From Candidatus Vogelbacteria bacterium (GTDB lineage Bacteria > Patescibacteriota > Minisyncoccia > Phycocordibacterales > XYD1-FULL-46-19), in contig CAIPHT010000017.1 in assembly GCA_903864935.1 (NCBI GenBank), positions 16,096 to 80,095 of the forward strand: a DNA stretch of 64,000 nucleotides. Direction: 5' to 3'. How positions within the stretch are numbered: the stretch's first letter is position 1; every line of letters begins with the position of its first letter. Positions 18,647 to 42,077 of the stretch are shown here, piece by piece. The translations under genes were made by a program, and so were the position numbers. The notes beneath the pieces were generated by a model. That model was not told the DNA's origin and did not search any database. It saw only the letters and a list, made by a program, of their open reading frames with translations.

Positions 18647-18667
18647 TCGCTTCCTTCCTGTTCGAAC

Positions 18668-18697: not shown

Positions 18698-18730
18698 TTC
18701 TACTTCTCCTTCTTAATATTATAACACAGA

Positions 18731-18758: not shown

Positions 18759-18780
18759 CTGAGGGACATTTTGGAGAATT

Positions 18781-18809
18781 TGCCTTTTTGGGCCTTTTCC
18801 TGTATAGTA
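18781..18809 (+). promoter_or_regulatory. candidate promoter TTGCCT, 17-nt spacer, TATAGT upstream of rpmG
   Basis: ttgcctttttgggccttttcctgtatagt. Spacing is canonical, but the -35 is a weak match. Confidence 0.35.
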
Positions 18810-18833
18810 AGACGGTCCTAAATATATATCATT

Positions 18834-18992: not shown

Positions 18993-19008
18993 GCCTCTTG
19001 GTTTTTTT
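18982..19008 (+). terminator. intrinsic terminator after rpmG: CCAAGA/TCTTGG stem plus TTTTTTT
   Basis: 6-bp stem, 8-nt loop, U7 tract. Confidence 0.5.
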
Positions 19009-19053
19009 GTTGCTTGCTTGGTTTTTAGTTTCTAAATAGTTTATACTTATAGA

Positions 19054-20385: not shown

Positions 20386-20417
20386 TAAAATTAACCTAAT
20401 TACTAAAAAAAATTCCA

Positions 20418-22723: not shown

Positions 22724-22862
22724 TTGAAGAGAAGATAAAAATTAATCTAATTACTAATTTCTAATTAACCTAAAAAAATAACCAATAACCAAAATTTAGA
22801 AATTGGGATTTGGAATTTGTTTAGAAATTAGAGTAATTAGGTCAATTAGAAATTAAGTAATA

Positions 22863-25212: not shown

Positions 25213-25878
25213 ATGGCTCAAAGAAAAGTCGAGTTTGCAATTGGAGAGTACTATCATATCTACAATCGAGGGGTTGAGGGTCGGTGTATTTTTGCTGACC
25301 AGAAAGATCTGGCTCATTTTGCGCAAAGTGTCGAAGAGTTTAATGGAAACAATGTGGTCGGAGGCCTGTATATGGGCTCTTTTAAGAAACACAAAGAGAG
25401 GGGAGAGAAATTGGTAAATATAATTTGTTACGCTTTTAACCCTAATCATTACCACTTTTTAATGACCCCGTTGGTTGATAAAGGGATAGAAAATTTTATG
25501 CAAAGGCTTGGTACGGGTCACGCTATGTTTTTTAATAATCAACACAAAAGGAAGGGCCGATTGTTTCAAGGGGTTTTCAAATCTGTTCATGTTGGTTCAA
25601 ATAGACAGCTTTTGCATGCGAGTGTTTATGTTAATCTTAACGATAAAATCCACCAAATCGGAGGCGAAGCCTCTAAGTTGGTAAAGACAAGTTGGGGTAG
25701 TTATTCTTCGAATTCTTCAAAAAAGAGAGACTTTTTGCTTGGTGACACCAGTATTATTACCGATCAATTTAAAAATTTTCAAGAATATAAAAAATTTGCT
25801 GAAGAAATTTTGCCTGATATTATTGCCCGCAAAAAATCTCTAAAAGAGCTTGAAGAATTGATGTTGGATGAGAATTAA
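25213..25878 (+). CDS. HuH-family tyrosine transposase of the IS200/REP-associated (RAYT-like) type, copy 1
   Basis: N-terminal IGEYYHIYNRGVEGR. HuH motif NPNHYHFLM. RKGRLFQGVF. Tyr-containing segment ASVYVNLN, then WGSYSS. Paralogous to the 42223 gene. Flanked by family-1 palindromes, with a degenerate copy (GAGGCGAAGCCTCTAAG at 25662-25678) inside the CDS. Confidence 0.75.
   Translation: MAQRKVEFAIGEYYHIYNRGVEGRCIFADQKDLAHFAQSVEEFNGNNVVGGLYMGSFKKHKERGEKLVNIICYAFNPNHYHFLMTPLVDKGIENFMQRLGTGHAMFFNNQHKRKGRLFQGVFKSVHVGSNRQLLHASVYVNLNDKIHQIGGEASKLVKTSWGSYSSNSSKKRDFLLGDTSIITDQFKNFQEYKKFAEEILPDIIARKKSLKELEELMLDEN
25662..25678. repeat. degenerate REP1 copy (3' arm and loop only) inside the transposase CDS
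   Basis: ggaggcgaagcctctaag, encoding IGGEASKLV. Confidence 0.6.
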
Positions 25879-25982: not shown

Positions 25983-28900
25983 ATGTTTTCTGTTTGGCAA
26001 AATTTCGTGAGTAGAAAAGGCTTTTTTGGCGTTCTTTTTTTGATTGTTTTTTCTTTTATTTTGACGCCAACTTTTTCGGCTTTTGCCGTCACCGGTGTCC
26101 CGGCCACCATGAGCTATCAGGGTCGCTTGGCGAACTCAGCCGGTGATCTTGTTGGTGGTGCCGGTGCCATCTATTCTTTCAAATTTTCTCTCTGGGACAA
26201 TGCGACCGTTGGTGCGGGTTCGCAAGTTTGGCCAGCGGGCGCGCCCACCGCTGTCAATGCTACCGTCCGTCAAGGTCTCTTCAACGTCAACATTGGCGAC
26301 ACCGGGAGTGGTTATCCCGATGCTCTCAATTACGACTTCAGTCAGAACAACAAAATTTATTTGCAGGTTGAAGTCTCTTCCGACGGTCTTACTTACGAGA
26401 CTCTTGGTCCTCGTCAACCCATCACCAGTGCGCCCTTCGCTCAAGTCGCGGGTCAAGTCTCTGGCTCTGCTGTCTCCACTATGGGTGGTCTTGTCGTTAA
26501 CGGCGGGGTCACTAGCACCCACTCCACCACCACCGGCTCGGGCTACTTCGGCACCGCTTTAGGCCTCGCCGGTCAGTATATTAATTCTTGGTCTGACCTC
26601 GCCACTTATCTCCCCGTTGTTGTTGGTTGGAGCACCAGCTCTGATAGCACCAACTTCGCCACTCTCCTCGCTGGTACGACGACGGATGCTCTTGCTGAAG
26701 GTGTCAATCACAAGTATTACAGCAACGTCTACGTCGCTGATTATATTTCTTCCTCCTCCACCCTTGCCTCCTCGTTAAATTATTGGGCCAAGTCGGGGAG
26801 CGATCTTAGTTACACTGCGGGGAATGTTGGTGTCGGGATGAGCCCTGTCTACAAGCTTGATGTCAATGGCGCGATAAGGGCTAATGGTAGCAATATTATT
26901 GCTGGAGGCGGTTCGGTGTTTGGTTGGATTTTTGGTTCGAACGGTTTATCTAATGTTGACACTACCTTAAACACCTCGGCCGGTTACAATATTTTATTTA
27001 AAAATGGTACATCCGAGCAAATGAGAATCTCTTCAGGGGGTCTTGTTGGTATCGGCACCACCACCCCTACACAAAGACTCGACGTCCTCGGCAACATCCA
27101 AGTCAACGGCACCTCCTCCTACATGATCAATGGCGTCAACCTTGCTTTTGGTTCAACCACAAAACAAAATTATTTCTTCGGTGCGGCGGGCAATAGTAAT
27201 ATCACTGGGAGTTATAACACCGGTGTCGGCAAGGGCGCGCTCGTCACCACCACTTCGGGCGGTTACAATACGGCCGTTGGGCGTCAATCTCTCTACCTTA
27301 ATACTATCGGTTCATCAAACACGGCTTTGGGTAATAACGCTCTACAATCTGTCTCGGCAGGTGATGGCAATGTCGGCCTTGGTGCTGATGCTGGTCAATA
27401 CGAGCTCGGTTCTAACTCTTTCTACCTCAATAATATTGATCAGAACGATACCGCCGGCGACAAGGCCTACTCCTTATTGTATGGCAAATTCTCTGGTGTG
27501 GCCGGTTCGCTCACCAACCAATTCCTCACCGTCAACGGCAAACTTAATATCGGTACCACTACCATGGCCTCGACCTTCAACATTCAAGGTATCTCCGGTG
27601 TCTCGGCCTTAAATATTGCCTCATCAACTGGAGCTCCGATGTTCACGGTGGCAAGCAATGGCAACGTCGGTATCGGGACCAATGCGCCAGCGTATCCTTT
27701 GGACGTAAACGGGAATGCTAAAGTTAATGGAGTTTTGACCGTATTGAATGGCACTTCTTATGGTATTCTTGCGGGACTTTCAAAATTGAATTTGTATGAT
27801 AATGCCGGGAATGCCTCATATCAAAATAGTTATACTGGAGGTTGGGGTTTTGGAATTGGGAATATCTCGCCTACCTATACTTTAGACGTTAAAGGAAGTG
27901 GAGCTGCTGGTGGTATCTTTAATGTCGCTTCGTCGTCAGGAGTAAGTGCTTTGATGGTTTCGAATAATGGCAACGTCGGCATTGGCACAAACGCACCATC
28001 TACTGGGTTACATCTTTATGATAATACAAGCACTGCTAATAAAGCTCTTATGAGATTAGAGACTACGGCTGGAAGTGGTCAGAATGCTGGAATAAGAATG
28101 ATTGGCGGGGCTAGCAATGCAGATTGGATGATTGGTACTAATAGAGCCGATTTAGCTGGTGCAGGAGACAGCCTATTATTTTATAAAAGTTTAGGCACAG
28201 CCGGAACTAAAATGGTGATCCAAGATAACGGCAACGTCGGTATTGGCACCACTTCGCCCGCAACAGCCTTACATGTTTATGGCGCAACACCAGAGATTAG
28301 GTTAGATGCGAGTGGTAGCGTCAATGCTCAATATACTTTAAATCAAAACAATGTTAAATATGGTTTATTGGGTCTATCGCTAGCCACTGATCAGCTTGCT
28401 CTTGGGTCAGCTGTCGGTGACGTTGTCCTTAGAGCTAACGCTGGTCAGAAACTTATGTTAAGCGCCAACGGTTCAGGCGCAAGCTCGACCATGACTTTAT
28501 TGAATGGTCTTGTTGGGATTGGCACCACCACCCCAAGCTCCTTGCTTCATCTCTATGGCAGTAGCGCCAACCCTTTGATTCTTGAGAGAAATAGCAGCCT
28601 TGCTAATGTTGGAATTCAATTCAAAGATACTTCGGGCTCTTGGTATGCTGGTAAGGGTACTGGGACGGGGAATTTTGCTATTGGTACTGATGCTAATCTT
28701 GGGGCCAGCACAATTTTTAATATTCAATCGAATGGTAACGTTGGTATTGGGACTTCTTCACCAGCTAACCCTTTGACCGTTGCGGATAAAGCTCAGATCG
28801 GAACATCTATTACAAACACCTCTCAGTCCGCCTCACTTGTTGTCCAAGGCACGGCTTCAAGAGCAGCCATGTATATTCAGGGTGATGCTTCGCGTTCAGC

Positions 28901-31900
28901 TTCGACCGATTTGATTTATTCAGTCAATAGATATGGAGTCGCTGGCGGATTCCAAATGTTCGGTGATCACAGCATGCTTATCGGCAGTACCGGGAAAGAA
29001 TTTCAATATCAAGGTAGCACCGGCTATGTCGGTATCGGCACTACCTCACCATCACAGTTATTGACCGTTGGGAATAACAATCAATTTACCGTCACGTCTG
29101 GGGGAGCGGTTAGTGCCACGGGCGGATTCTCGACCAATGGCACTGTCAACGCTGGTTATTATCAACTTGGCGGTATCCAAGCCTTTGCTTACTCTGGGAC
29201 GCAGGTCCAAGTTTCGCCGGCCGCCTATTGGCAATCCCTCGGCTTATTTACCAATGGTTCAGAAAAAGTTTCTATTTTAAGTAATGGCAACGTCGGTATC
29301 GGTACCACTACCCCATGGGCCAAACTTTCTCTTCAGAATTCCTACGGCTCCACAGGGGCTTTGCTTGATATTGCCACTACCACCTCGTCGGCTTTTGCCA
29401 CTTCATCGGTCTTCTATGTGGGGTCCAATGGTTACGTCGCGGTGGGAACGAACAATCCAACCAATCTTTTTGAAGTTGATGTTGGTGGTGTTTATAAGGT
29501 AGCAGTAAATGCAGGAGGAACATTTGTTGCCAAGAATGACGTAATGACCAACCTGATTGGTGATCTTGGCTCAAAATATCAGAAGATAATGCTTGATCAA
29601 GCAAACGGTTTGAGATTCTTTGCTGGCTCTTCGGCTTCCAATGAGTATATGAGAATCAACCAATCTGGCCTCGTCGGCATCGGCACCACTTCACCAATGG
29701 CCACTCTGTCTGTCATGGGCACTTCAACCTTGCCGGGCGTTAATCCTTTTGTTGTCGCTTCTTCGTCTGGTGTTCAACTTTTAACCGTGTTGCCGAATGG
29801 TAATGTGGGGGTGGGGACAACAAATCCGAGTGCTAAATTAACAGCATTTTCCGATGCAACATCCGGCGCAATAGGAGACACTCTAAGAGTATTTTCTGGT
29901 CTAGGGTCTGTAGCATTAAAAATATATTCAACCACAAATGGTGACGGATTGATCATCAATCAGTATTATCAGGGTTCAGGGCAAAATTATATCAGAATGG
30001 CGGATATCGTGTCTAACTCAGGAGATACTTCAGAAGCACAAATTCGGTTTCTAACTAAGCCAAACTCAGCAAATCCTAGCGAAGCAATGCGAATTACTGG
30101 CAGTGGTTTTGTTGGTATCGGTACTACGAGCCCCGCTCTTAAATTGCATGTATTAGGCACTATTGGTCTGCCGGCTACTTCTGGTACGGCCCAGAATGGT
30201 GTCGCAAGATTCTCGGTTGACCCAGCCGGAACGGGTTATGTTTTGGATATGGGTGTTCTCTCCGGTGCCTCATGGTTGCAGACAACTATTGCCGGTGACC
30301 TAGGCACTTATGGTTCTTTGCTCTTGAACCCACGCGGGGGCAATATCGGTATTGGCACAGCTACTCCGGGTAAGACCTTAGATGTGAATGGTGATATCAG
30401 AATAGGGGTAAATAATAAACTTTATTTGGTCTCAACAAATGATAGTAATTATCTATCATATAATGAGTGGAACACTGCCTCCTCGATTGGTCTTAAGTTT
30501 TTAATTAGTGGCAACGAGAAGATGAGAATTGATGCTTCCGGCAACGTCGCCATTGGCACCTCAACCCCTTGGGCCAAGCTCGCCATTCAGAATTCCTACG
30601 GCTCCACTCAGGCCTTGTTTGATATAGCGACGACGACTTCATCAGCCTTCGCCACCTCGTCGGTCTTCTATGTTGGGGCGAATGGCAATGTGGGTATCGG
30701 CACGGCGAACCCTGCCAAGAGACTGTCAATAACGGATGCGAATACGGCCTTAAGCGCGTATGCTTTAAATATTAGTGCTTATAAGAGCTCTGGCAATTTC
30801 TCTGGACTCTCGTTTGGCGATGATAGTGGCGGAACTGTTTGGGGCGCAATTAAGTTCAAAGCCGATACCAATAACGACAGTTCTTTGAGATTCTTGACTT
30901 GGGACGGGACGACTGGCGGCACAGAGAGATTAACAATCAAGGGAGTTGGGGGCTCAGTTGGTATTGGTTCTACTTCTCCTATTTCTACCCTCTCTGTTAA
31001 AGGTGTTGCCGGCTATAATCCATTCACCATTTCTTCTTCCACGGATGCTTCGCTCCTCACTATCTTACAGAATGGCAACGTCGGTATTGGGACAAGTAGT
31101 CCGGCGACTTCTTTGGATGTTTATAGTAATACGACGGACAATATCTTCCGTTTGATGACGGGGCCCGCTATTGGGGTGATGCCCACCTTTACCATGTCAC
31201 AAGGGGGAACCAACAATTTTCAAATTGGCCGAGCGCTAACTCTTTTCAACCCTAACCTTGGGGGTATCGCCGCCGAGAATGATGTCGGTTTCTCTGCCCC
31301 GACCAACCGAAGCCTCTATTTTGGTACCGCCGCTAATCCTTACTTAGCAATAAGAAATGGTGGCAATGTGGGTATTGGCACGACGAGCCCCCCTGATTTA
31401 CTAACTGTTTACCATGATAGCTCCGCAGACACCGTCTTAAATATTTCTAATAATAGCCTCAGTGCAAGTTACGGGAGTTCGGTTTTGAAGTTCAGCCAAG
31501 GAAACGGTGAGGCAGCCTATATCTCTTGGAATCAGGCAAACCAGCTTTTTAAATTTGTAGCTGGACGAAATAATTTTAATAACTTCTCTTTCAATACTGT
31601 TACAGGAGGAGCTGAGGTCTCAAGATTATTTATACAAAATAATGGTAACGTTGGTATCGGCTCCACTTCACCAATGGCCACCTTGTCAGTAATGGGCACC
31701 TCGACCTTGCCGGGCGTTAATCCTTTTGTCGTCGCTTCTTCATCCGGTGCTCAACTTTTGACGGTGTTGCCAAATGGCAAAGTGGGCATAGGGACAACCG
31801 GACCTGTTACTAAGTTATCTTTATCGGATGCCACGTCCACTTTTCTAACTATTTCTAATACTAACAATGCTAGTGGTGTGGTCGGAGGAATGTTGTTCTC

Positions 31901-34900
31901 AAGTCAATACGAATCAACGTATAGAAAAGGGGCTATCTCTTTTGTGCGGACTGAGAGTAACGCAAACAGGGGTTATCTCTCTTTTGCCTTGGATGCCAGT
32001 AACACCGCTAGTAACGTTGACTCTGATATTATCGGTAATACAAAAATGGTCATTGACTATACTGGCTCTGTCGGGATTGGAACGACGGCCCCAGGGGCAA
32101 AGTTAGATATTGTTGGTGTAAATAATCAATTAAGAATTACTAATGCAGACGGAACTAATTATTATAGTATCGGTAGGAGTAATTCAAACGGGTATTTAGA
32201 GTTTAGTTTAACTGGTGCTAATTCTTATGGATATACATTCAATGGTGGCCTCGTCGGTATCGGTACCACTTCACCAATGGCCACCTTATCAGTAATGGGC
32301 ACTTCAACCTTGCCGGGCGTTAATCCTTTTGTCGTCGCTTCTTCATCCGGTGCTCAACTTTTGACTGTATTGCCGAGTGGTAACGTGGGAATTGGTATTT
32401 CTAATCCTGCTCAGTTACTGGATGTTGAGGGGAGAATAAGAGCTAATACCCTTGAGTTTGGCGCTAACAATAGTTATCTCGGTTATCTTGATCAGGGGGG
32501 TCTAGTCTTTAACTCTTCGGGTGTGGGGACTATCTATAATGCTTACTCTGGTTCCAACCTCTTCCTTTCTAGTAACGGAGGCAACGTGATATTGGGGATG
32601 AGAGATGACGGACTCGCTTCTTATAATGGCAAGGTGGGCATCGGCACTTCAACTCCTTTTGCCAAACTTGCCATTCAGAATTCCTTTGGTTCCACTCAGG
32701 CCTTGTTTGATATTGCGACGACCACTTCATCCGCCTTCGCCACCTCGTCGGTCTTCTATGTTGGGGCGAATGGTAATGTGGGTGTTGGTACTAACCTCCC
32801 GACAAATAAATTTACCGTCAGTGGGACAGTTGACCCTGTGCGCTTCCATAGCACCGGTCAAAATGTCTTAGAAATTTCTAGTACGGGGAATAGTGAGAAT
32901 GGTGTTAGATTCACTCGTAGCGGCGATGCCTCTTACTGGACCTTGGGGATGGATAATAATTCGACTAATGACTTTTATCTTGGCTCTAGCGGTTTTGGAA
33001 CAAAGTATCTAACTGTTTTGCAAACAAACGGCAACGTTGGTATTGGCACCACCACACCAATCTCCACTCTCTCTGTTTCCGGTACCGCGGGCATTAATCC
33101 GTTTACCATTGCTTCATCCACCGGCCAGACAATGCTAACAATGCTTCAGAATGGCAATGTGGGAATCGGTACAGCGAATCCAATTTCGCCTCTAACTATT
33201 TCTAAAAATTCTGCCACTACGGCAACTTGGTTAAATTTGGATAATACTGATGTTGGGGGCGCGGGGGTAATGTTGGATTTTACACAAGGCGGAGGGATGA
33301 TGGGACGAATAAATAGTTACTATGCTGGTAATGGGTTATGGAATCTTGGTTTGGGGACAAATGCTAACTCAGGATTGCCGGTGTTGTTTGTGACAAACGG
33401 CCGAGTGGGAGTAGCGAGCACTACGCCACAATCCACCTTCGCTGTCTCTGGTATCGCTGGCACAAATCCTTTCACTATTGCTTCTTCAACTGGCCAGACA
33501 ATGCTAACAATGCTTCAGAATGGCAACGTCGGTATTGGTACAGCGGCGCCAAGTTATCCATTGGATGTTGTCGCAAATTCAAGTGGATCAAATTTGAATC
33601 TTATAAACAACCCCAGTAATCTTTCGGGGATTAGATTTGGGGTAAATGGAACGCCTGCCTCTTCTTACACGACGATTTTCGCTGATGGCAGATCTACCGG
33701 TTATTTGTATATTAAAACTAATGATATTGAGCGATTCCGCATCGACTCAAATGGCAACGTCGGTATTGGCACGACAACCCCAAGTGATATCCTAAGTATC
33801 CAAGGTAATTCATCAATCCTTGGTAATACTCCTTCCGTTGGACTTAATAATACGGATTCTGGAGGTAGATTGTGGAGTATTTATTCTTCTGGTAACAGTA
33901 ATTCTATTGGCGGTGGTAAGTTTAGTATTTTTGATAAAACAGCCAGTTTAAATAGACTCGTTATTGATTCCTCTGGCAATGTGGGGATTGGTACTTCTAG
34001 CCCACAGTCAATTCTTCATCTCTATGGTGCGACAGTTAAGCCTCGACTCGAGCGTTCGGTTAGTTCGGGCGCGGCAGTTTTGGACTTCTGGCCATCGGGT
34101 ACTTTGAGTCAGGCTAATTCTGTTTGGAGTTTTGGTATGGTTGAGAATAATAGTAATTTCTCGGTCAATCAATGGACTGGCTCGCAAACTTTGCAGAGAC
34201 TTCTTGTTGATACGAATGGCAACGTTGGTATTGGTACGACGAGTCCTGCGGCGACTTTGGATATAGAGATAAATAATACATCAGGAGCTTCAACCATTCC
34301 TGTTTTTAGAGTAGGAAATTTGGCGGGTACTCCAGCCTACTTTGGTATTACATTGGGCGGTTCGGCGAGTGGTTGGGAAAATATCGCACAGCTCCAACTT
34401 AATGGGACTAAATACATATCTTTAGATGGTGGGCAATCCACAGTTGATTTACATAAAAATATGTTATTGGATAATAATGTATCTTTTCAGGCATCTTCCA
34501 ATGGATTTAACAACTTTGTTCCTTATAACACAGCTTTTTCAAATGGATTCTCTTTTGATACAGGCTCAATATTTAGCTTCCAGACAAATGGTAGTCCGGT
34601 TATGACAATATTAAATAATGGCAACGTCGGCATTGGCTCCACCACCCCGCTCTCCACCCTCTCAGTCTCCGGCACGGCTGGCACCAACCCATTCACAGTC
34701 GCTTCCTCCACTGGCAACGCGATGTTGACGATGCTTCAGAATGGCAATGTGGGAATCGGTACAGCGAATCCCGGGAACAAGCTTCATATTGTAGGTGGGG
34801 GTCTCTCTTTGGGTGATAGCGTTTCTGCCTTAACAACAAGGGGATTATTTAATATTCACGACTCAAGTAATGCTCGAATGAGCATTACTAAAGCAAGCGT

Positions 34901-37900
34901 TGGAGGGTTTAGATTTGATGTGACTGGGTCTGGAAGTAGCTACAGATTAAATATCGGAGATGATAATGTTGCTAATAGTGGCGATACTAATGCTTGGATG
35001 ACCTTTACTAATCTCGGCCTCGTCGGCCTCGGCACCACCACCCCTAACGCCAACCTTAATATCTTCGGTACCACCAACACCTTCATGCGGGTAGCCTCTT
35101 CAACCAATCAGAATATCTTCGTCATTGATAATAATGGCGACGTCTCCATGTCTGGTGGCTTGGCTCTCACTGGTCTCACTGGCAACATCATCACCTCAAC
35201 CAATGTTAAGCAAGCCATCCAAGACTTAGACACCAGCCTATATAATCAACAGAACAATACTAAGGAGATCACTGGTTTCCCTAACCGCACCGACACGAGC
35301 ATTGCCTTCACTAGCGGCACCCGCACCTTCACCATCACCGGCACCAACTTCAAGCTCTACTCAGTCGGCAAAGAATATACCAAGAATACCGAATCCATTG
35401 GTCTCCCTAACACTGTCGGCCTCTACTATATATACTACGACAAGACCAGCCACAACTTAGCCACCAGCACCACCGCTTGGGGTCTCACCGATGGCACCAT
35501 CCAAGTCGCCACGGTCTATTGGGATGGCACCACTGGCGTGTTGGGCGAAGAGCGTCACGGGGTCACCATGGATGGCGCCACTCATGAGTATCTCCACCAT
35601 ACTGTCGGTACCAGATACCAGTCTGGCTTAGCTGGTACCTTCAATTCCGACAGAACCTTCTCCATCACCGCTGGCGCGGTGGATGACGAAGATATCGAAG
35701 AGACAATCCCACTCACCACGACTGGTCGTATTCTCTACCACAATGGTCCAACCAACTTCACTTATACTTCGGCCACCTCCAGCTTCTTCGATGAGACTTG
35801 TACGGGCGGAGTTGTCTGTTACGACAATGCGGGCACCAAGGCGGCCGTCACAAACAACAACTATGTCGCCTATTGGATCTTCGCCACCAATGACCCGACC
35901 ACCCCAATCTACTCAATGATGGGTCAACGCCAAGACACCAGCCTCGCTAATGCTCAAGCTAATCAGACCTATGGCAGCCTCACACTTGGGACCCTCCCAT
36001 TTGCTGAGATGAAGTTACTCTATCGTGTCATTGTCAGGAACAACGCCGGCAGTACCTTGTCCGTCGATGACTATCGCTCCGTCTCTAACCTCCCATCGGG
36101 CACCTACCTCGCTACTTTGCACAGCAGTTTGACTGGTCTTACTAATGACGACCACACTCAATACGCTTTGCTCGCTGGTCGCGCTGGTGGTCAGAGTTTA
36201 ATTGGTGGCAATACCGCCGGAGACAATCTCACCTTGTTTGGCAACTCCATTGACTACGGCAATATCTTCACTCAACCTTATGGGGGGAGCTTAACGGTGG
36301 GCACCACTTCTACTATCACCCTCGCCAACACCTTATTCAATGTGGCTTCGTCTACTGGTGCCAATTACTTAACGGTGTTGAAGAATGGGAATGTTGGGAT
36401 TGGGACGAGTAGTCCAAGCACAAATTTTTACGTACAGGGCAATTCGGAGGTTACGGGGTATCTTATTGCTGGAGGGGCTTATTCCAACGCCGATACAGTT
36501 AGAATTTCTCTTGATGAATATACTGACCGAAGTAGAATTGCGACAGCTGGATATACCAACAAATATTATGCGGGAAGGGCGACCGGAGTAAATGGCGAAC
36601 ACCGTTTCTATGTTGGAGCCAATGGCTCATGGAATGAAGCACTAAGTATTCTATCTTCTGGTTCCATCGGTATTGGCACTACCACCCCTCTCGCCAAGCT
36701 TGATCTCACTGGGACCCTTGGGTCACTGGCCGATATCTTCAACGTCTCCACGAGCACGGGGGCCAACTTAGTCTCAAGTCTCTTCCGCATTACGGCCAAC
36801 GGCGATGTGTCTATTGGCGGAGCTAATCTTGGTAATTACAGCACCACCACCATCAATAATGACTTAGTGGTTGGTGGTGGCGCTCTCACTTACTCTTCAT
36901 CCACTGGCATTGTCTCAATTGATAATGTGGAGTTGGGAGCCACCTCCTTCCCAACTGATGCCGGGATGGTTAGCTGGATGGATATGCCTCTCACCTCAGG
37001 TACGGCTGCCGGTGTCGGTGTGGCTTATACTGCCAACCTCGCGGGCAACCCTATCCTTTCCATCGCTGGTATCTCTGATGGTAATGGCGACCTCTCGAGC
37101 TTTGGTGTTGGTATTGGTACCACCAGTGTGCCTGCCTTCCTTACAATCCAAAATGCTTCGACCACCAGCAATATGCCTCTGCTGCTTTTTGCTTCGTCTT
37201 CTGGATCTTCAATCCTCTCTATTTCTAATAATGGCAATATCGGGATTGGGACGAGTACCTCAGGTGGGACACTCCACGTAATTAATCCTACTGGTATAAC
37301 CTCAGCTAAGTTCCAGGCTGGCACTGGTAACACAATCACTAATTCTTTGTTAGAAATCTTACCTAATAGTGGGCTTAGTAAAATTTATTTCTCCTCTGAC
37401 AATAATGGGCAAAGAATGGTTTATCTTGATACGACGGGTTCACCAAGAATGAATATCGATAACTCGTCTATTGTCCAAGGTTCTAATCGTTTAATCAATT
37501 GGACATCTGGCGACATGAACGCCTCCGCTGATATTGGTCTTTCTCGCGGGGCCGCTGGTAAATTATATGTCGGCAATGGGGCAACCTATGACTATACCGG
37601 AGGATTAATCGCTGGGTCTGTGGGCATTGGCTCCAGCACTCCCGTGGCCAAGCTTTCCATCCATGATAATTCGGGACTCGCGGCATCTAATCCACTCTTC
37701 ACCATTGCTTCATCGAGCGCCGCGGGCACGGGCACTACCACTTTGTTGACGATACTCGGGAATGGCAACTTGGGCATTGGCACCGCTTCGCCGAATTCTC
37801 CACTTCAAATTTCTAACACTACCGCTACTACCAAATTTATTCGAGTGGGGACCAACTCCAATCCTTCCACCACAGCCAATGCTGGCGGTATAGTCGTGGA

Positions 37901-39824
37901 TGTTAACGGTGGTGGTGGGGTCTATATGGGAGACTCAGCCAACGGTCTTTATGGTAAGTATGAGGCCTATGGTGGGAAGATAGGTATCGGCTCAATGTCC
38001 AATCATCCTGTTGGTTTGTTTACAAATAGTGTTGAGCGATTAAGTATCACCAACGGTGGTTTGGTTGGCATTGGCACCACGACACCATCGGCGAAGTTCT
38101 CTATTCAGAATGCCTTCGGCGCGACTGGGGCTCTGTTTGATATTGCCACCACCACTTCTTCAGCTTTTGCTACCTCGTCACTCTTCACCGTGTTGGCCAA
38201 TGGTAATGTGGGTATCGGGACGAATAATCCGACATTGATATCTGGAGGAAGTGGTTTACATATTAAAAATAGTAACGGTGAAGGGAATCTTAGATTGGAT
38301 AGCACAGTTGGTAATAATCAACAGGTATTTGAATTAAGGACCGAAGGAACAGTGACAGGTTTTGAATTATACGATATTACTAATGGAAAAAGTAAAATAT
38401 GGGTTAAACCGAATAATGGTGACATAATGCTGATGAACAGCAACGTTGGCATTGGCACCACTTCACCAATTGCTAAATTATCAGTGATTGGAAATACTTA
38501 TCTAGGAGGCAATCTTACCGCCACAGGCACTCTTGATGTTGCCGGTACCACAACGATACCTTTTGGTTCCAAGATTGGCGACGTTGCGGGTAGTAATTAT
38601 GTGACCGTTGAGAATAGGCCATTCGATGGGACCTATGCCAGTGGCAGTATCCCTTTGATTAAATTCAACTCCCTGTTCCCTGGTGACTCATCGGTGGGTG
38701 GGATTGATAGGAGTTTGATAATTACGGCTAGTGGTGGTGTCTCGCCTTCACTTCAATTTGCCGCTGAAGATTTTGCCGATACCGCAAATGTCGGAAAAAT
38801 TATTTATGATACCCATAATAATAGAATGGTTGTTAGTGATATTACTGGTACGGGCGCTGTTAATTCAGTTGATTTGTTCATCCCTAATGGTAATGTGACA
38901 ATTAACGGGCTTAATAGTAACGGCGCCGTCTATTCGAATGGCGGTTTGCTCACCAACACCAATCCATCCTCTCGTGATTACAAGAAGAATATTATTGACA
39001 CTAATCTTAATCTTGACGCTCTACTCGGCTTGCAAGTTAAATCATTTGTTTGGAAGAATAATGGCCAGAGTGATTTTGGTCTGATTGCCGAGGAGGTTAA
39101 GAGTGCTTTGCCTGAGCTCTATGTGGATGATGGCAAGACCAAGGGTTATCGCGCCGACCACTTACCATTCTACTTATTGCAGATTGCTCAGCGCCAAGAA
39201 GGGGAGATTAATAGTTTGAACGAGCAAATCACCTCATTGCTCGGCGCCAGCACTAGCTCACCAATTACTCTCACCGAGGGTGGTCTGATTGATCCAAGTT
39301 TACTCGCCGTCTCTAGCTCAAGCCTCGCGGTGGCGACAACAACAGCCGAGACTTCTACTTCTACCGCTTTCTCAATTATCTCTGATCGGCTGCTTACGGG
39401 TGTCGGTACTGTCAAAGAGCTTGTCTCTGAGCGCATGGTGGCGATGGTGGGCCTCTTCGATTATATCAAGGCTAAGGTGGTCGAGACGGATACGCTTAAG
39501 GTCCAGAAGGGGATGGAGATTAAAGATTCGGCCACTGGCGATATCTACTGTGTCTTGATCGTGAATGGCGAATGGCAGAAGACGAAGGGCAAATGCTCGG
39601 ATGTCCCTGTTGCGCCTACCACGCCAAGCACGCCTACTTCTCCCGCTCCCGCTGACTCTTCTTCTGGCTCTTCCACCCCTTCGACTTCCGGTGATACTAG
39701 CACCAGCACACCTAGCTCTGATACTCCGGTAATTACCACTGATTCTTCTGTCCCTCCTGCCCCAACCGAACCAGCCCCAACTCCTGATCCTGTCCCAGCT
39801 CCAGCCCTCGAACCAGCTCCCTAA
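25983..39824 (+). CDS. Giant secreted fibre protein (4613 aa) with about 44 NGNVGIGTTxP-x3-L repeats, a tail-fibre-like central region, a C-terminal intramolecular chaperone (peptidase S74 / endosialidase-chaperone type) domain and a Pro/Thr/Ser-rich tail.
   Basis: N-terminal hydrophobic anchor (GFFGVLFLIVFSFILTPTFSAFA). The motif recurs every 60-130 aa. The C-terminal segment NTNPSSRDYKKNI..LDALLGLQVKSFVWKNNGQSDFGLIAEEVKSALPELYVDDGKTKGYRADHLPFYLLQIAQRQEGEINSLNEQI matches the S74 autoproteolytic chaperone pattern (SDRRLKENI..VSY.WK.....GFIAQEV..V.PE...). Confidence 0.85.
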   Translation: MFSVWQNFVSRKGFFGVLFLIVFSFILTPTFSAFAVTGVPATMSYQGRLANSAGDLVGGAGAIYSFKFSLWDNATVGAGSQVWPAGAPTAVNATVRQGLFNVNIGDTGSGYPDALNYDFSQNNKIYLQVEVSSDGLTYETLGPRQPITSAPFAQVAGQVSGSAVSTMGGLVVNGGVTSTHSTTTGSGYFGTALGLAGQYINSWSDLATYLPVVVGWSTSSDSTNFATLLAGTTTDALAEGVNHKYYSNVYVADYISSSSTLASSLNYWAKSGSDLSYTAGNVGVGMSPVYKLDVNGAIRANGSNIIAGGGSVFGWIFGSNGLSNVDTTLNTSAGYNILFKNGTSEQMRISSGGLVGIGTTTPTQRLDVLGNIQVNGTSSYMINGVNLAFGSTTKQNYFFGAAGNSNITGSYNTGVGKGALVTTTSGGYNTAVGRQSLYLNTIGSSNTALGNNALQSVSAGDGNVGLGADAGQYELGSNSFYLNNIDQNDTAGDKAYSLLYGKFSGVAGSLTNQFLTVNGKLNIGTTTMASTFNIQGISGVSALNIASSTGAPMFTVASNGNVGIGTNAPAYPLDVNGNAKVNGVLTVLNGTSYGILAGLSKLNLYDNAGNASYQNSYTGGWGFGIGNISPTYTLDVKGSGAAGGIFNVASSSGVSALMVSNNGNVGIGTNAPSTGLHLYDNTSTANKALMRLETTAGSGQNAGIRMIGGASNADWMIGTNRADLAGAGDSLLFYKSLGTAGTKMVIQDNGNVGIGTTSPATALHVYGATPEIRLDASGSVNAQYTLNQNNVKYGLLGLSLATDQLALGSAVGDVVLRANAGQKLMLSANGSGASSTMTLLNGLVGIGTTTPSSLLHLYGSSANPLILERNSSLANVGIQFKDTSGSWYAGKGTGTGNFAIGTDANLGASTIFNIQSNGNVGIGTSSPANPLTVADKAQIGTSITNTSQSASLVVQGTASRAAMYIQGDASRSASTDLIYSVNRYGVAGGFQMFGDHSMLIGSTGKEFQYQGSTGYVGIGTTSPSQLLTVGNNNQFTVTSGGAVSATGGFSTNGTVNAGYYQLGGIQAFAYSGTQVQVSPAAYWQSLGLFTNGSEKVSILSNGNVGIGTTTPWAKLSLQNSYGSTGALLDIATTTSSAFATSSVFYVGSNGYVAVGTNNPTNLFEVDVGGVYKVAVNAGGTFVAKNDVMTNLIGDLGSKYQKIMLDQANGLRFFAGSSASNEYMRINQSGLVGIGTTSPMATLSVMGTSTLPGVNPFVVASSSGVQLLTVLPNGNVGVGTTNPSAKLTAFSDATSGAIGDTLRVFSGLGSVALKIYSTTNGDGLIINQYYQGSGQNYIRMADIVSNSGDTSEAQIRFLTKPNSANPSEAMRITGSGFVGIGTTSPALKLHVLGTIGLPATSGTAQNGVARFSVDPAGTGYVLDMGVLSGASWLQTTIAGDLGTYGSLLLNPRGGNIGIGTATPGKTLDVNGDIRIGVNNKLYLVSTNDSNYLSYNEWNTASSIGLKFLISGNEKMRIDASGNVAIGTSTPWAKLAIQNSYGSTQALFDIATTTSSAFATSSVFYVGANGNVGIGTANPAKRLSITDANTALSAYALNISAYKSSGNFSGLSFGDDSGGTVWGAIKFKADTNNDSSLRFLTWDGTTGGTERLTIKGVGGSVGIGSTSPISTLSVKGVAGYNPFTISSSTDASLLTILQNGNVGIGTSSPATSLDVYSNTTDNIFRLMTGPAIGVMPTFTMSQGGTNNFQIGRALTLFNPNLGGIAAENDVGFSAPTNRSLYFGTAANPYLAIRNGGNVGIGTTSPPDLLTVYHDSSADTVLNISNNSLSASYGSSVLKFSQGNGEAAYISWNQANQLFKFVAGRNNFNNFSFNTVTGGAEVSRLFIQNNGNVGIGSTSPMATLSVMGTSTLPGVNPFVVASSSGAQLLTVLPNGKVGIGTTGPVTKLSLSDATSTFLTISNTNNASGVVGGMLFSSQYESTYRKGAISFVRTESNANRGYLSFALDASNTASNVDSDIIGNTKMVIDYTGSVGIGTTAPGAKLDIVGVNNQLRITNADGTNYYSIGRSNSNGYLEFSLTGANSYGYTFNGGLVGIGTTSPMATLSVMGTSTLPGVNPFVVASSSGAQLLTVLPSGNVGIGISNPAQLLDVEGRIRANTLEFGANNSYLGYLDQGGLVFNSSGVGTIYNAYSGSNLFLSSNGGNVILGMRDDGLASYNGKVGIGTSTPFAKLAIQNSFGSTQALFDIATTTSSAFATSSVFYVGANGNVGVGTNLPTNKFTVSGTVDPVRFHSTGQNVLEISSTGNSENGVRFTRSGDASYWTLGMDNNSTNDFYLGSSGFGTKYLTVLQTNGNVGIGTTTPISTLSVSGTAGINPFTIASSTGQTMLTMLQNGNVGIGTANPISPLTISKNSATTATWLNLDNTDVGGAGVMLDFTQGGGMMGRINSYYAGNGLWNLGLGTNANSGLPVLFVTNGRVGVASTTPQSTFAVSGIAGTNPFTIASSTGQTMLTMLQNGNVGIGTAAPSYPLDVVANSSGSNLNLINNPSNLSGIRFGVNGTPASSYTTIFADGRSTGYLYIKTNDIERFRIDSNGNVGIGTTTPSDILSIQGNSSILGNTPSVGLNNTDSGGRLWSIYSSGNSNSIGGGKFSIFDKTASLNRLVIDSSGNVGIGTSSPQSILHLYGATVKPRLERSVSSGAAVLDFWPSGTLSQANSVWSFGMVENNSNFSVNQWTGSQTLQRLLVDTNGNVGIGTTSPAATLDIEINNTSGASTIPVFRVGNLAGTPAYFGITLGGSASGWENIAQLQLNGTKYISLDGGQSTVDLHKNMLLDNNVSFQASSNGFNNFVPYNTAFSNGFSFDTGSIFSFQTNGSPVMTILNNGNVGIGSTTPLSTLSVSGTAGTNPFTVASSTGNAMLTMLQNGNVGIGTANPGNKLHIVGGGLSLGDSVSALTTRGLFNIHDSSNARMSITKASVGGFRFDVTGSGSSYRLNIGDDNVANSGDTNAWMTFTNLGLVGLGTTTPNANLNIFGTTNTFMRVASSTNQNIFVIDNNGDVSMSGGLALTGLTGNIITSTNVKQAIQDLDTSLYNQQNNTKEITGFPNRTDTSIAFTSGTRTFTITGTNFKLYSVGKEYTKNTESIGLPNTVGLYYIYYDKTSHNLATSTTAWGLTDGTIQVATVYWDGTTGVLGEERHGVTMDGATHEYLHHTVGTRYQSGLAGTFNSDRTFSITAGAVDDEDIEETIPLTTTGRILYHNGPTNFTYTSATSSFFDETCTGGVVCYDNAGTKAAVTNNNYVAYWIFATNDPTTPIYSMMGQRQDTSLANAQANQTYGSLTLGTLPFAEMKLLYRVIVRNNAGSTLSVDDYRSVSNLPSGTYLATLHSSLTGLTNDDHTQYALLAGRAGGQSLIGGNTAGDNLTLFGNSIDYGNIFTQPYGGSLTVGTTSTITLANTLFNVASSTGANYLTVLKNGNVGIGTSSPSTNFYVQGNSEVTGYLIAGGAYSNADTVRISLDEYTDRSRIATAGYTNKYYAGRATGVNGEHRFYVGANGSWNEALSILSSGSIGIGTTTPLAKLDLTGTLGSLADIFNVSTSTGANLVSSLFRITANGDVSIGGANLGNYSTTTINNDLVVGGGALTYSSSTGIVSIDNVELGATSFPTDAGMVSWMDMPLTSGTAAGVGVAYTANLAGNPILSIAGISDGNGDLSSFGVGIGTTSVPAFLTIQNASTTSNMPLLLFASSSGSSILSISNNGNIGIGTSTSGGTLHVINPTGITSAKFQAGTGNTITNSLLEILPNSGLSKIYFSSDNNGQRMVYLDTTGSPRMNIDNSSIVQGSNRLINWTSGDMNASADIGLSRGAAGKLYVGNGATYDYTGGLIAGSVGIGSSTPVAKLSIHDNSGLAASNPLFTIASSSAAGTGTTTLLTILGNGNLGIGTASPNSPLQISNTTATTKFIRVGTNSNPSTTANAGGIVVDVNGGGGVYMGDSANGLYGKYEAYGGKIGIGSMSNHPVGLFTNSVERLSITNGGLVGIGTTTPSAKFSIQNAFGATGALFDIATTTSSAFATSSLFTVLANGNVGIGTNNPTLISGGSGLHIKNSNGEGNLRLDSTVGNNQQVFELRTEGTVTGFELYDITNGKSKIWVKPNNGDIMLMNSNVGIGTTSPIAKLSVIGNTYLGGNLTATGTLDVAGTTTIPFGSKIGDVAGSNYVTVENRPFDGTYASGSIPLIKFNSLFPGDSSVGGIDRSLIITASGGVSPSLQFAAEDFADTANVGKIIYDTHNNRMVVSDITGTGAVNSVDLFIPNGNVTINGLNSNGAVYSNGGLLTNTNPSSRDYKKNIIDTNLNLDALLGLQVKSFVWKNNGQSDFGLIAEEVKSALPELYVDDGKTKGYRADHLPFYLLQIAQRQEGEINSLNEQITSLLGASTSSPITLTEGGLIDPSLLAVSSSSLAVATTTAETSTSTAFSIISDRLLTGVGTVKELVSERMVAMVGLFDYIKAKVVETDTLKVQKGMEIKDSATGDIYCVLIVNGEWQKTKGKCSDVPVAPTTPSTPTSPAPADSSSGSSTPSTSGDTSTSTPSSDTPVITTDSSVPPAPTEPAPTPDPVPAPALEPAP

Positions 39825-39829
39825 TTTGT

Positions 39830-39842
39830 CTAGGCCTTGCCT
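39830..39842. repeat. 13-nt remnant of the REP family-2 palindrome (CTAGGCCTTGCCT) between the giant gene stop and the LamG gene
   Basis: Exact match to the core of the 42886 copy. The chance of this at this length in 64 kb is negligible. Confidence 0.6.
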
Positions 39843-39869
39843 GGACAAAACCAAGTGCTTAAAATATTT

Positions 39870-42077
39870 ATGAATAAAATTTTATTTTTTATAATCTCTA
39901 TTAGTTTAGGCTTGACCTTTTCTCTTCCCGCCTTTTCTCTGGCCGCACAAATTGATTCCGCCCCCACTCGTGGCCTTGTTGGCTACTGGTCTTTCGACGA
40001 AGGGACCTCTACTATTGCCCATGATTATTCAGGGAATAAAAATAATGGGACTTTGGTGGGAACTCCTAAACCTAGTTGGGTTGCTGGTAAAAATGGTAAA
40101 GCTTTAATTTTGAATGATGCGACGCAATATGTTGATGCGGGGACAGGTAATACGGGTGTTTATAATCCGGGTCAAACCTTTACTTTGTCTGTTTGGGTAT
40201 TACCAACTGCAACCGGTAAAGCTAGTGGAGCTGATATAATTCAAAAACAAACAGGCTCTGCTTCACCGTATGCGAGTTGGTCACTTGATTTTAGTAATAA
40301 TCAGGAATTTGGGCTTGGCTTAGGTGGGACAAATAATACATTTTATGATTTCAGGGCAAAAACGCCAGCCGTTGCACTTAATCAGTGGTACCATGTTGTG
40401 GCAACTTATGATGGCACGACGATAAAAACATATTTAAATGGGGCCCTGTCTAATTCCGAAGTTTTCCCACTGACTATTAAATACACCAGTGACAAACTTG
40501 TTTTTGGATCATGGTCTTATGGTCAGGCAACTAATTTATTTGTCGGTAAAATAGATGAAGCTCGCATCTACAACCGTGCCCTAACAGCCGGCGAAATTTC
40601 TGCCCTTTATCAAACCAGCGCCACCAAGATTAATCCAGCACCGCCGATCAATAAAGCTGGTCTTAATGCTGGACTCATTGCTTATTGGACGATGGATACT
40701 CAAGATATTAATTGGACGACGAGCCGGATGATTGATAAGTCGGGGAGTGGTAACACGGGCACACTTGGAGCCTTTACTAGTACGGCCTCGGCTCTGGGTA
40801 AATTGGGACAGACGCTCAAGTTCAATGGTACGAGCAATTATCTGGTCAATAGTCAGGTGGTTAATATCACCAAGTCCACCGTCTCGGCGTGGGTCAATTT
40901 GCCGAGCTACCCCACGAGCGGGAGCTTGGGCATGCTCGCTGGTTTTGCTCAAGGTAATAATTCTGATACTCACGACAAGGACCTCTTCATCGATGGGAGT
41001 GGTAAGGCCTATTATTACACTTACACTGGCCAACTCAAGTGCACCACTGAGCCGACCAATGCCATTCCGCGCAATTCTTGGCACTTGGTCACCGGCACTA
41101 ACGATGGTGTTAACAATTATCTTTATATTGATGGACAGCTGGCCGGTTCGGTCTCCGCCGGTAATTCGTATGCTGGCTATGGTTCGGCCAACCTGCTTGT
41201 TGGGGGCAAAGTTAATTATTCCGGCTCGGTTGGTTGTGGTACCGGCAACACCACGCGCACCTATCTCCCGGCGAATACCAAGATTGATGATGTGCGCATC
41301 TACAACCGCGCGCTCTCAGCGAGTGAAGTTAAAACTTTATATAATCAGAGCCAGGGGACAAAAGTGAATGCTCCTCCGACTCTCAAACCTCTTGGTCTCG
41401 ACTCCGGCCTTGTCGGTTATTGGACAATGAACAATCAAGACATTAATTGGAAGACGATGACGATGGTAGACAAATCCGGCAAAGGCAACACTGGCACGCT
41501 CACCAACATGCCTACCTCCACTTCCCCCGTCGCCGGCAAAATTGGTCAGGCGTTGAAGTTTAATGGGAGTAGTTACGTTGATACTAATAGTGCAAGTCTT
41601 GGTCTAACAAATAGTAGTGATCTGACCGTCTCTGTTTGGTTTAAAAGAGCCGATTCGGATGTCGGCCAGCATCATTTGGTTAGTGATTATAATAAAAATA
41701 CGCCAACGGGTTGGATGTTTATGTTCGAATCTAACTACTTATGGATAAAAAATTATCAAACGAGCGCAGTGAACGCAAGAATGTCTGCATCCGTCTCAAC
41801 CATTATTGATACGAAGTGGCATCACGCAGTCGGGATAATAAAAGGAGATGGAACAGATACAAAATTATATATAGACGGCATCCTCCAAGGGAGCAGTTTT
41901 TTTGGTGGTGCGGGAGGCATTGTGACTCAATTGAACATGGGAAGCGGGAATGTAACTATCGGGAGACAGTCCTTGCCTTCTGAAAGATTTTTCAATGGCT
42001 CTATCGACGACACCCGCATCTATAATCGCACCCTTACCCCCGCCGAAGTCCTCCAACTCTACCGCCAAGGAAAATAA
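39870..42077 (+). CDS. secreted protein with three tandem LamG / ConA-like lectin-glucanase domains
   Basis: Signal peptide MNKILFFIISISLGLTFSLPAFSLA. Three repeats each start (L)VGYW(S/T)(F/M)D and end D(E/D)xRIYNR(A/T)L(T/S)..E(I/V)..LY, the hallmark of the LamG_3 / ConA-like superfamily. The ATG at 39870 is chosen over the upstream TTG. Confidence 0.75.
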   Translation: MNKILFFIISISLGLTFSLPAFSLAAQIDSAPTRGLVGYWSFDEGTSTIAHDYSGNKNNGTLVGTPKPSWVAGKNGKALILNDATQYVDAGTGNTGVYNPGQTFTLSVWVLPTATGKASGADIIQKQTGSASPYASWSLDFSNNQEFGLGLGGTNNTFYDFRAKTPAVALNQWYHVVATYDGTTIKTYLNGALSNSEVFPLTIKYTSDKLVFGSWSYGQATNLFVGKIDEARIYNRALTAGEISALYQTSATKINPAPPINKAGLNAGLIAYWTMDTQDINWTTSRMIDKSGSGNTGTLGAFTSTASALGKLGQTLKFNGTSNYLVNSQVVNITKSTVSAWVNLPSYPTSGSLGMLAGFAQGNNSDTHDKDLFIDGSGKAYYYTYTGQLKCTTEPTNAIPRNSWHLVTGTNDGVNNYLYIDGQLAGSVSAGNSYAGYGSANLLVGGKVNYSGSVGCGTGNTTRTYLPANTKIDDVRIYNRALSASEVKTLYNQSQGTKVNAPPTLKPLGLDSGLVGYWTMNNQDINWKTMTMVDKSGKGNTGTLTNMPTSTSPVAGKIGQALKFNGSSYVDTNSASLGLTNSSDLTVSVWFKRADSDVGQHHLVSDYNKNTPTGWMFMFESNYLWIKNYQTSAVNARMSASVSTIIDTKWHHAVGIIKGDGTDTKLYIDGILQGSSFFGGAGGIVTQLNMGSGNVTIGRQSLPSERFFNGSIDDTRIYNRTLTPAEVLQLYRQGK

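Follow-up and report, generated by a model that had tools for sequence, protein, structure and literature searches.

Fibres of the kind considered here are the mosaic adhesive trimer (MAT) proteins, with which the predator Bdellovibrio bacteriovorus grasps its prey (Caulton et al. 2024, PMC10769870; PDB 8OJN, 8OND, 8OML, 8OL4 and 8ON4). MATs are located at the cell surface, carry a beta-rich domain of ~130 aa after the signal peptide, and one of them binds glycans. Their common sequence motif forms capping loops at the edges of intertwined trimeric beta-helix domains. Bdellovibrio has 21 MATs with a typical length of ~1000 aa, and 13 of these 21 end in a peptidase S74 domain with the SDxxxK motif; Bd3182 cleaves itself at S782, and the S782A substitution blocks the cleavage. 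The supplementary table of that study lists proteins of 417–1915 aa, including members from other predators, Omnitrophica and Micavibrio, and none from Patescibacteria (PMC10769870). The present study concerns a gene located at 25983..39824 on the forward (+) strand of a 64,000-bp stretch of contig CAIPHT010000017.1 from Candidatus Vogelbacteria. Further in this study the whole analysed stretch is referred to as the window, and the 4613-aa product of the gene, as the fibre protein. The latter is probably a MAT-type trimeric fibre adhesin of the cell surface, very likely serving host capture.

To our knowledge, the ways in which Patescibacteria recognize and hold their hosts are largely obscure, type IV pili being the only well-studied device. 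The use by a cell of a phage-like trimeric fibre assembled with the help of S74 for grasping bacteria is already known (the MAT family), as are the giant surface proteins found in Candidate Phyla Radiation (CPR) bacteria and the automatic annotation of such Patescibacterial proteins as containing tail-fibre domains. What is new is the link between Patescibacteria and MATs (the literature searched yielded no publication that connects S74 or MAT fibres with Patescibacteria), the scale of the protein, an in-line domain similar to phage receptor-binding proteins (RBPs) from a large family that has no model, and the non-terminal position of the S74 domain. An earlier note on this DNA, made from the sequence, had proposed that a cell employs a phage-fibre chaperone for making an attachment fibre. 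This is supported by our analysis, but the principle itself is not new, having been shown for Bdellovibrio (PMC10769870).

The repeated motif and the S74 domain of the fibre protein

According to the ORF list and the translation, the fibre gene is one uninterrupted open reading frame (ORF) of 13.8 kb from the ATG to the stop codon at 39822-39824, which confirms the giant size of the protein noticed earlier. The protein is rich in glycine (13.5%), serine (11.7%), threonine (11.1%) and asparagine (8.9%) and contains only four cysteines, forming two close pairs (3273/3279 and 4523/4538). A single family, Peptidase_S74, was matched in the Pfam scan of the whole protein; the NCBIfam search gave no match, and Pfam scans of five isolated segments (E ≤ 1) yielded nothing beyond one sub-threshold low-complexity match.

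The loose motif G-x-[VIL]-[GA]-[IVL]-[GA]-[TSIM] occurs in the protein 44 times, compared to the mean of 0.35 and the maximum of 4 in 2000 shuffles, in agreement with the approximately 44 copies reported before. The form G-x-V/I-G-I/V-G-T/S has 37 copies, and the exact string NGNVGIGT, 15 copies; at least one more copy, NSNVGIGTTSP near aa 4150, is missed by the loose pattern. The motif had been described as a repeat unit of 15 aa. Instead, it punctuates longer units of 41–50 aa (13 cases) or 61–103 aa (25 cases), with a motif-free gap of 457 aa at aa 3012-3469.

A motif profile was built from 39 windows of 40 aa each, taken from the fibre protein, and searched against all PDB sequences. It matched five distinct sequences and no others, all of them from Bdellovibrio MAT structures: 8ond (Bd2133, E-value 4e-23, three copies), 8oml (Bd1334, 1.4e-12), 8ojn (Bd3182, 1.2e-8), 8ol4 (Bd2439, 4e-8) and 8on4 (Bd1334, 2e-5). 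The matched segments include ISQAGNVGIGATAPTAKLEVAG and MRITGSGLVGIGTPAPAVPLQV. Judged by this homology, the NGNVGIGTTxP…L motif reads as the capping-loop motif of the MAT superfamily: it is of the V-G-x-pi-x-x-P-x-x-x-L type and lies on repeated beta-helix domains. The motif family had been thought undescribed. Indeed, it has no Pfam model, yet the MAT capping loop was described structurally in 2024 (PMC10769870). The idea of a trimeric beta-helix-type shaft fared better, as the profile matches only the sequences of trimeric MAT fibre crystals.

The motifs are distributed over two parts of the shaft. The proximal shaft (26811..35072, +; aa 277-3030) contains 36 MAT-type capping-loop motifs that delimit beta-helix units of 41–103 aa. 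The distal shaft and the mature tip (36300..38966, +; aa 3440-4328) comprise 8–9 more MAT motifs followed by a unique region of ~165 aa ending with …GAVYSNGGLLTNTNP. Short repeats similar to N-T-A-x-G-x-x-A-L (…YNTGVGKGALVTTTSGGYNTAVGRQSLYLNTIGSSNTALGNNALQ…) are seen at aa ~380-520 (26900-27560), and a similar stretch is present in one of the relatives (P0003). We take these repeats to resemble the YadA-head/Hep_Hag type; a Pfam search of the stretch at E ≤ 1 gave no match.

A highly repetitive gene may be produced by repeat mis-joins that fuse two genes or inflate the number of repeats. In addition, the exact fibre protein is on record nowhere else: it is absent from the gene index searched, as is the TopA protein of the same window, and a 42-nt probe from the fibre gene found no match in the JGI metagenomes and no second copy. 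Against this, the repeat copies are 62–169 nt long and only 60–88% identical at the DNA level, that is, too diverged for mis-assembly, and therefore collapse or expansion of repeats is unlikely. Moreover, one frame stays open throughout the gene, and relatives of 1845–3800 aa in metagenome-assembled genomes (MAGs) of other Patescibacteria carry subsets of its modules in the same order. An assembly artefact thus has hardly any credibility.

The Peptidase_S74 chaperone domain (Pfam PF13884) occupies 38967..39242 (+; aa 4329-4420). The PF13884 match itself spans aa 4329-4379 (profile positions 1–56 of 58) and scores 31.6 bits with the whole protein and 35.5 bits with a 374-aa fragment, the gathering cut-off being 22. 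The catalytic Ser-Lys dyad of the S-D-x-x-x-K motif is present in the form S4329-S-R-D-Y-K4334. The codons of the predicted nucleophile S4329 (38967-38969, +) and of the predicted general base K4334 (38982-38984, +) were checked. Hence, both the significant S74 match and the dyad, proposed earlier as checks of the domain, were found, and the string SSRDYKKNI…NEQI quoted at that time is present in the protein and scores as S74.

The Ser and Lys residues are invariant in the alignment of 18 homologous sequences, which share the block G-x-VYSN-x-G-x-LTN-x-NP-S-[SD]-x-x-x-K-x-x-I with the part G-x-VYSN-x-G-x-LTN-x-NP preceding the cleavage site. The profile of the S74 alignment matched in PDB the long tail fibre of phage S16 (6f45, 2e-12), the tail fibre 8jov and the T5-type L-shaped fibre 8hqz, with the S and K columns falling on the catalytic residues of these solved domains. 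It also matched mouse MyRF (7dc3), where the Lys is aligned and Ala stands in the Ser column. The use of profiles was necessary, given that a single-sequence PDB search with the C-terminus produced only spurious low-complexity matches to bS16. Further, the C-terminal region matches nine PHROG families, eight of which are tail proteins. By analogy with Bd3182, whose mature fibre ends at A781 and whose S782 is catalytic, autocleavage is predicted between P4328 and S4329.

The fibre protein had been said to end in this chaperone domain. The domain is real, but it is not terminal: it extends over aa 4329-~4420, directly following the fibre, and 193 more residues lie downstream (post-S74 extension, 39243..39821, +; aa 4421-4613, read from the sequence). 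The C-terminal position is typical of the S74 family, though not strictly defining. The extension starts at 39243 (+) with a linker rich in Ser and Thr, continues with a two-Cys module (~39420-39617, +; C4523/C4538, …KDSATGDIYCVLIVNGEWQKTKGKC…) and is completed by a Pro/Ser/Thr-rich tail of 68 aa (39618-39821, +), the true C-terminus of the protein. Pfam found no match in it. The same two-Cys module is present in P0153 and, again after S74, in P0002.

Patescibacterial S74 proteins (P0001, P0002, P0153, P0154, P0156, P0161 and P0212) commonly continue past the chaperone, with a PT/S-rich tail as the last element. At least three types of post-S74 modules were seen: the two-Cys module 'TGxxYC…G-x-C', the module 'LCVSD…KTCITKxQLDxLL', and a beta domain of ~100 aa, 'IPAG…V.FDKPY…F.W.A'.

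On the whole, the observation made in the earlier note was partly confirmed: the ORF, the motif, the S74 domain and the quoted strings are there, whereas the terminal position of S74 and the 15-aa repeat unit are not. Its interpretation was partly supported.

The central domain and its relatives in phages

The proximal and distal parts of the shaft flank a central conserved domain of ~310 aa (35253..36182, +; aa 3091-3400) with the invariant ERHG…MD..TH.YLH and DED elements and the Cys pair 3273/3279. No Pfam, PHROG or NCBIfam model matches this domain, and a single-sequence PDB search with the central region gave no match. At the same time, the family is large: in a HMMER search of 1.84 billion representative proteins it comprised 5428 clusters (50% identity) at E<1e-3 and 894 clusters at E<1e-30. 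The proteins carrying the domain are 257–3800 aa long and mostly lack MAT motifs. In a comparison with 25 other members, which are 42–67% identical to the copy of the fibre protein, the invariant positions were E, H, H, H, D, E, Q, D, E, K, R, D and R. The domain often ends with …H-x-x-L-T-G-L-x-x-DDHTQY (the family including loci L086-L165).

The invariant residues ERHG…TH.YLH…DED resemble a metal or catalytic site, and the S74 domain was first described on a glycosidase tailspike. It could be supposed that the central domain or the mature tip is a depolymerase or hydrolase of host-surface polymers, similar to endosialidase tailspikes, and that the fibre is its delivery arm. However, no enzyme family was matched in Pfam, NCBIfam or PHROGs, and in phage fibres groups of conserved His residues frequently coordinate structural metal ions along the three-fold axis. 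We consider an enzyme carrier improbable. The HEYLH string as a zincin HExxH motif was rejected: the Glu is not conserved, whereas H127 and H131 are.

The AlphaFold 2 model of the central domain has a core pLDDT of ~90. Its fold is similar to those of phage proteins, namely the lactococcal phage p2 RBP, the fibre of cyanophage A-1(L), the phage 1358 RBP, the HFTV1 fibre, SPP1 gp22 and the phi812 baseplate, and also to that of TssK, a baseplate protein of the type VI secretion system. A Foldseek search against predicted viral structures produced matches over the full domain (TM 0.70–0.73, 27–32% identity). The top four of them are proteins of uncultured Caudovirales, the best one being annotated as 'Peptidase S74 domain-containing protein'.

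The similarity extends to sequence, the central domain being 45–52% identical to a domain in tail-fibre ORFs of environmental phages. One such ORF (P0199, 50% identity) belongs to a structural module of an SU10-like podophage, where it is accompanied by genes for the major capsid protein, adaptor, amidase, terminase and portal. In IMG/VR, at least 450 stretches with the central domain were confirmed. The 86 viral ORFs examined that contain it have the median length of 1128 aa and the maximum length of 3112 aa (stop to stop); the usual start of the domain in them is at about residue 200. Only three of the 50,697 GenBank phage records have the domain; hence it belongs to uncultured phages.

Tail-fibre and virion genes identified by PHROG lie on both sides of two phage ORFs, L120 (1903 aa) and L146 (1574 aa). 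These two ORFs have the following order of elements: a short N-terminal segment of ~90 aa, which we read as an adaptor, the central domain, MAT-type motifs and the terminal S74 domain. The central domain of L120 is 45% identical to that of the fibre protein (E-value 8e-70, local BLASTP); the domain of L146 was paired with it neither by pairwise comparison nor by local BLASTP. In the outer third of the fibre protein (aa 3091-4420), the domains thus follow one another as in a complete phage tail fibre. The central region had already been likened to tail-fibre and receptor-binding tips: the strings quoted in its favour are present, and both the fold and the phage homologues support the likeness.

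The N-terminal domain and the genomic neighbourhood

The sole hydrophobic segment of the fibre protein revealed by the Kyte-Doolittle scan is aa 8-35. It terminates in SAFA|V, which resembles an AxA site, and has the appearance of a cleavable signal for Sec export. The putative signal peptide thus corresponds to aa 1-34 (25983..26084, +; MFSVWQNFVSRKGFFGVLFLIVFSFILTPTFSAFA|V), with the cleavage site read from the sequence. The assumption that the protein is N-terminally anchored is not supported by this segment; any anchoring would instead proceed through the conserved N-terminal domain that follows it.

The latter is an all-beta domain of ~130 aa that directly follows the signal peptide, in position and type as the N-domain of MATs. 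This predicted beta-sandwich (26088..26477, +; aa 36-165; xSYQGRL…PRQ…FAQVA) is our candidate for a cell-surface docking domain. It has 154 homologues and is common in long Patescibacterial proteins. Every match with a named bacterial source comes from a Patescibacteria lineage (Paceibacterota, Parcubacteria, Vogel-, Niyogi-, Zambryski-, Wolfe- and Campbellbacteria), and one fragment is named Heimdallarchaeota. Homologue searches by segment seemed confined to proteins not longer than ~1.75 times the query length, and full-length relatives were taken from the search of representative proteins. The domain has no PHROG match and no homologues in PDB; the MAT N-domain likewise has no PDB homologues (PMC10769870). 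Four short but complete Patescibacterial proteins of 329–359 aa (P0040, P0045, P0054 and P0100) consist of a signal peptide, the N-domain, one MAT motif and a conserved module …NENLWVCSGGGCG…ILEFDEGQ at the C-terminus. Possibly, these are minimal fibres, or caps, that employ the same surface dock.

To study the neighbourhood, 28 ORFs surrounding the fibre gene throughout the window were scanned with Pfam. They include genes for superoxide dismutase, a trypsin-like protease, ClpB, a second Clp-type ATPase, MiaA, ParB, RelA/SpoT, TopA, DprA, SerRS, D-Ala-D-Ala carboxypeptidase, Dus and a DNA polymerase III subunit; four tRNAs are also present. The ClpB protein is closest to Candidatus Paceibacterota (64%), followed by other Patescibacteria. 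No portal, terminase, capsid, tail-tube or baseplate genes were found among the scanned ORFs, and the fibre gene is not part of a phage structural or baseplate module, its neighbours being only housekeeping and surface-protein genes. These data support the cellular, ultra-small-cell context suggested previously. We infer that the host lineage is monoderm.

Several features of the protein could be explained if it were a phage, prophage or tailocin tail fibre whose gene is located in a bacterial contig by chance. Tail fibres and tailspikes are the best known carriers of the S74 domain, the PHROG matches of the C-terminal region are nearly all to tail proteins, viral contigs abound in the central domain, and relatives are named 'tail fiber domain-containing protein' by NCBI. 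Nevertheless, housekeeping genes and tRNAs adjoin the gene, and the phage structural genes sought are missing from the scanned ORFs. At its start the protein has a signal peptide of the Sec type and then the Patescibacterial N-domain, whereas L120 and L146 start with the putative adaptor, and at 4613 aa it is longer than any of the 86 viral ORFs examined. A virion origin is therefore very improbable. Prophage origin and assembly artefact were both considered and rejected on the grounds given for each.

The fibre gene sits in an island of surface-protein genes. At the left end of the window there is a second giant ORF (3-12128, +; at least 4041 aa), which runs off the window. It has no Pfam match, contains internal repeats of several hundred residues (…NGANTLTYN…YYNQVTVSGT…) and is completed by a single C-terminal transmembrane helix and RRKRQI; its family differs from that of the fibre protein. 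Upstream of the fibre gene, at 17582-24341 (+), five secreted or anchored proteins are encoded, with a dockerin (19054-20385), a cohesin (22863-24341) and several weak immunoglobulin-like (Big_6/Big_13) matches. This suggests a cohesin-dockerin surface assembly adjoining the fibre gene. Downstream, a gene at 39837-42077 (+) starts 13 nt past the fibre stop codon and encodes a secreted 746-aa protein with three Laminin_G_3 (LamG, ConA-like lectin) domains. It is probably co-transcribed with the fibre gene, and its product is possibly a partner or an accessory binding protein. The fibre and LamG genes are flanked by two paralogous genes (25213-25878 and 42223-42903, +; 37% identical) with Y1_Tnp domains similar to IS200-like tyrosine transposases, a pair that might mark a mobile or recombination-prone cassette. 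A small protein with PaaX_M/Cas2-like and winged-helix matches is encoded at 49603-50166 (+).

The same island brings up another explanation, in which the protein is a component of a fibrous coat (a spacer, a sheath or an S-layer-like fur) with no specific receptor recognition, as on the CPR bacterium Vampirococcus. The fibre gene lies among other genes of secreted surface proteins, including the second giant, and CPR genomes are enriched in giant surface proteins (1392–4163 aa in Vampirococcus), which are thought to form a fibrous layer that fills a gap of ~100 nm to the host (PMC8080830). In contrast, the closest characterized relatives of the fibre protein, MATs, are adhesins with demonstrated glycan binding, and in the known cases S74 processing exposes a binding surface (PMC10769870). 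Moreover, the distal cassette of the fibre protein is homologous to host-recognition proteins of phages. We consider a passive coat unlikely.

Proposed mechanism and comparison with known systems

We favour, as probable, the explanation that a Paceibacteria-like cell of Patescibacteria exports the protein by the Sec route and displays it on its surface as a homotrimeric beta-helical fibre of the MAT type. The signal peptide (aa 1-34) would direct Sec export. The S74 domain (aa 4329-4420) would put three chains in register and nucleate the folding of the beta-helix towards the N-terminus. Then the S4329/K4334 dyad would cut the P4328/S4329 bond, which would free a C-terminal fragment of 285 aa and expose the mature tip. 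The N-terminal beta-sandwich (aa 36-165) would dock the fibre on the envelope of its own cell, and ~45 beta-helix units bounded by the capping loops would project the tip by 0.15–0.3 micrometre. The outer third of the protein (aa 3091-4420), ordered as in phage fibres, would most likely set the specificity for the host or prey surface.

The length of the fibre, scaled from two published MAT cases, may be estimated at ~150–300 nm for a mature chain of 4293 aa. This is about one diameter of such ultra-small cells. The two cases are Bd3182 with 781 aa in the mature form and ~550 Å, and the tip of Bd2133 with 370 aa and ~142–150 Å (PMC10769870). The estimate exceeds the ~100-nm fibrous gap seen between Vampirococcus and its host (PMC8080830).

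Several points weigh against this explanation. The RBP-like domain is located in the middle of the fibre, 930 aa before the mature tip, which a simple model of binding by the tip does not explain; possibly, this node is a docking platform or a second binding site. In the S74 subgroup of the fibre protein, the +1 residue of SDxxxK is Ser rather than Asp. The non-terminal S74 domain is unlike those of the Bdellovibrio S74 MATs and the two phage ORFs, and the 193-aa extension could change the mechanism. The trimeric state would follow from homology to trimeric crystal structures together with the presence of S74, and the suggested likeness between the N-domain and its Bdellovibrio counterpart is one of position and type. 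Finally, since the gene is absent from the gene index and the metagenome collection, it has no independent assembly.

A bolder version of the preferred explanation is that the distal ~1330 aa constitute a complete phage cassette mounted on a cell-anchored MAT stalk of ~2750 aa, swapped by recombination with phages (possibly those of the host) and used by episymbionts for finding hosts. We regard it as a tentative and rather doubtful idea. If it were true, the host range of an ultra-small cell would be set and swapped in the same way as that of a phage, and the non-terminal S74 with a lineage-specific extension would represent a new use of the chaperone, e.g., for tethering or targeting the released fragment.

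The fibre gene and its relatives suggest that, in addition to pili, Patescibacteria use MAT-type fibres with a phage chaperone, phage-like recognition modules and a reach of approximately one cell diameter. With this, the MAT family would no longer be limited to the predators for which it was defined. Parts of the proposal are directly testable: the predicted cleavage site P4328|S4329 may be verified, and the distal cassette may be used as bait for host receptors. The central-domain family, with its more than 5400 clusters shared with environmental phages, deserves a model.

Among known systems, trimeric autotransporter adhesins of the YadA type (type Vc) were rejected as a counterpart. Neither the whole protein nor its C-terminal segments searched separately (E ≤ 1) gave a Pfam match to the beta-barrel membrane anchor YadA_anchor, the protein ends with a PST-rich tail, and the lineage is presumably monoderm.

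Phage S74 fibres and tailspikes (K1F endosialidase, T5 pb1, S16 gp37) share with the fibre protein the S74 domain with aligned Ser and Lys, and the L120 and L146 ORFs share the central domain, MAT-type motifs and S74 in the same order. Unlike the fibre protein, they are virion components encoded in structural modules; they begin with a short segment read as an adaptor, lack a signal peptide and end with S74. The fibre protein adds to this plan a signal peptide, the N-domain of the Patescibacteria type, a shaft of ~2750 aa, a chromosomal context and the post-S74 extension. Siphophage RBPs with the 'shoulder' domain (p2, 1358) and TssK are more distant, with 7–13% identity over 106–146 aligned residues. 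In these proteins the domain attaches the trimer to the baseplate, whereas in the fibre protein it is placed in the middle of the chain.

The Vampirococcus lugosii giants resemble the fibre protein in lineage, size class and the presumed role in host attachment. They were described as having other domains (WD40, PKD, integrin and fibronectin), and the terms searched in that description gave no link to tail fibres (PMC8080830).

The closest system is the S74 MATs of Bdellovibrio. Common to them and the fibre protein are a signal peptide, the presence of a beta-rich domain in the position right after it, the capping-loop motif (…NGNVGIGTTxPxxxLxV…), an S74 domain with S-x4-K, a variable distal module subject to mosaic exchange, and a cellular gene in a bacterium living on other bacteria. 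The differences are in scale and composition. The fibre protein is about four times longer than a MAT of ~1000 aa and 2.4 times longer than the longest MAT listed, it has ~45 motifs rather than a few, and it contains the in-line 310-aa phage-RBP-like domain and the 193-aa post-S74 extension. Its lineage is presumably monoderm, so the N-domain would have to bind another envelope element than in Bdellovibrio.

The relatives from Patescibacteria MAGs, 1845–3800 aa in length, combine subsets of the modules in the order of the fibre protein. Three of them (P0154, P0156 and P0162, the latter being a 3800-aa protein of Magasanikbacteria) are automatically named 'tail fiber domain-containing protein' by NCBI. 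P0154 and P0162 share with the fibre protein the N-domain and the central domain, and P0156 shares the central domain and S74, its match to the N-domain profile being not significant (E-value 0.034). Overall, the N-domain, the central domain, S74 and the three kinds of post-S74 modules recur among the relatives in varied combinations.

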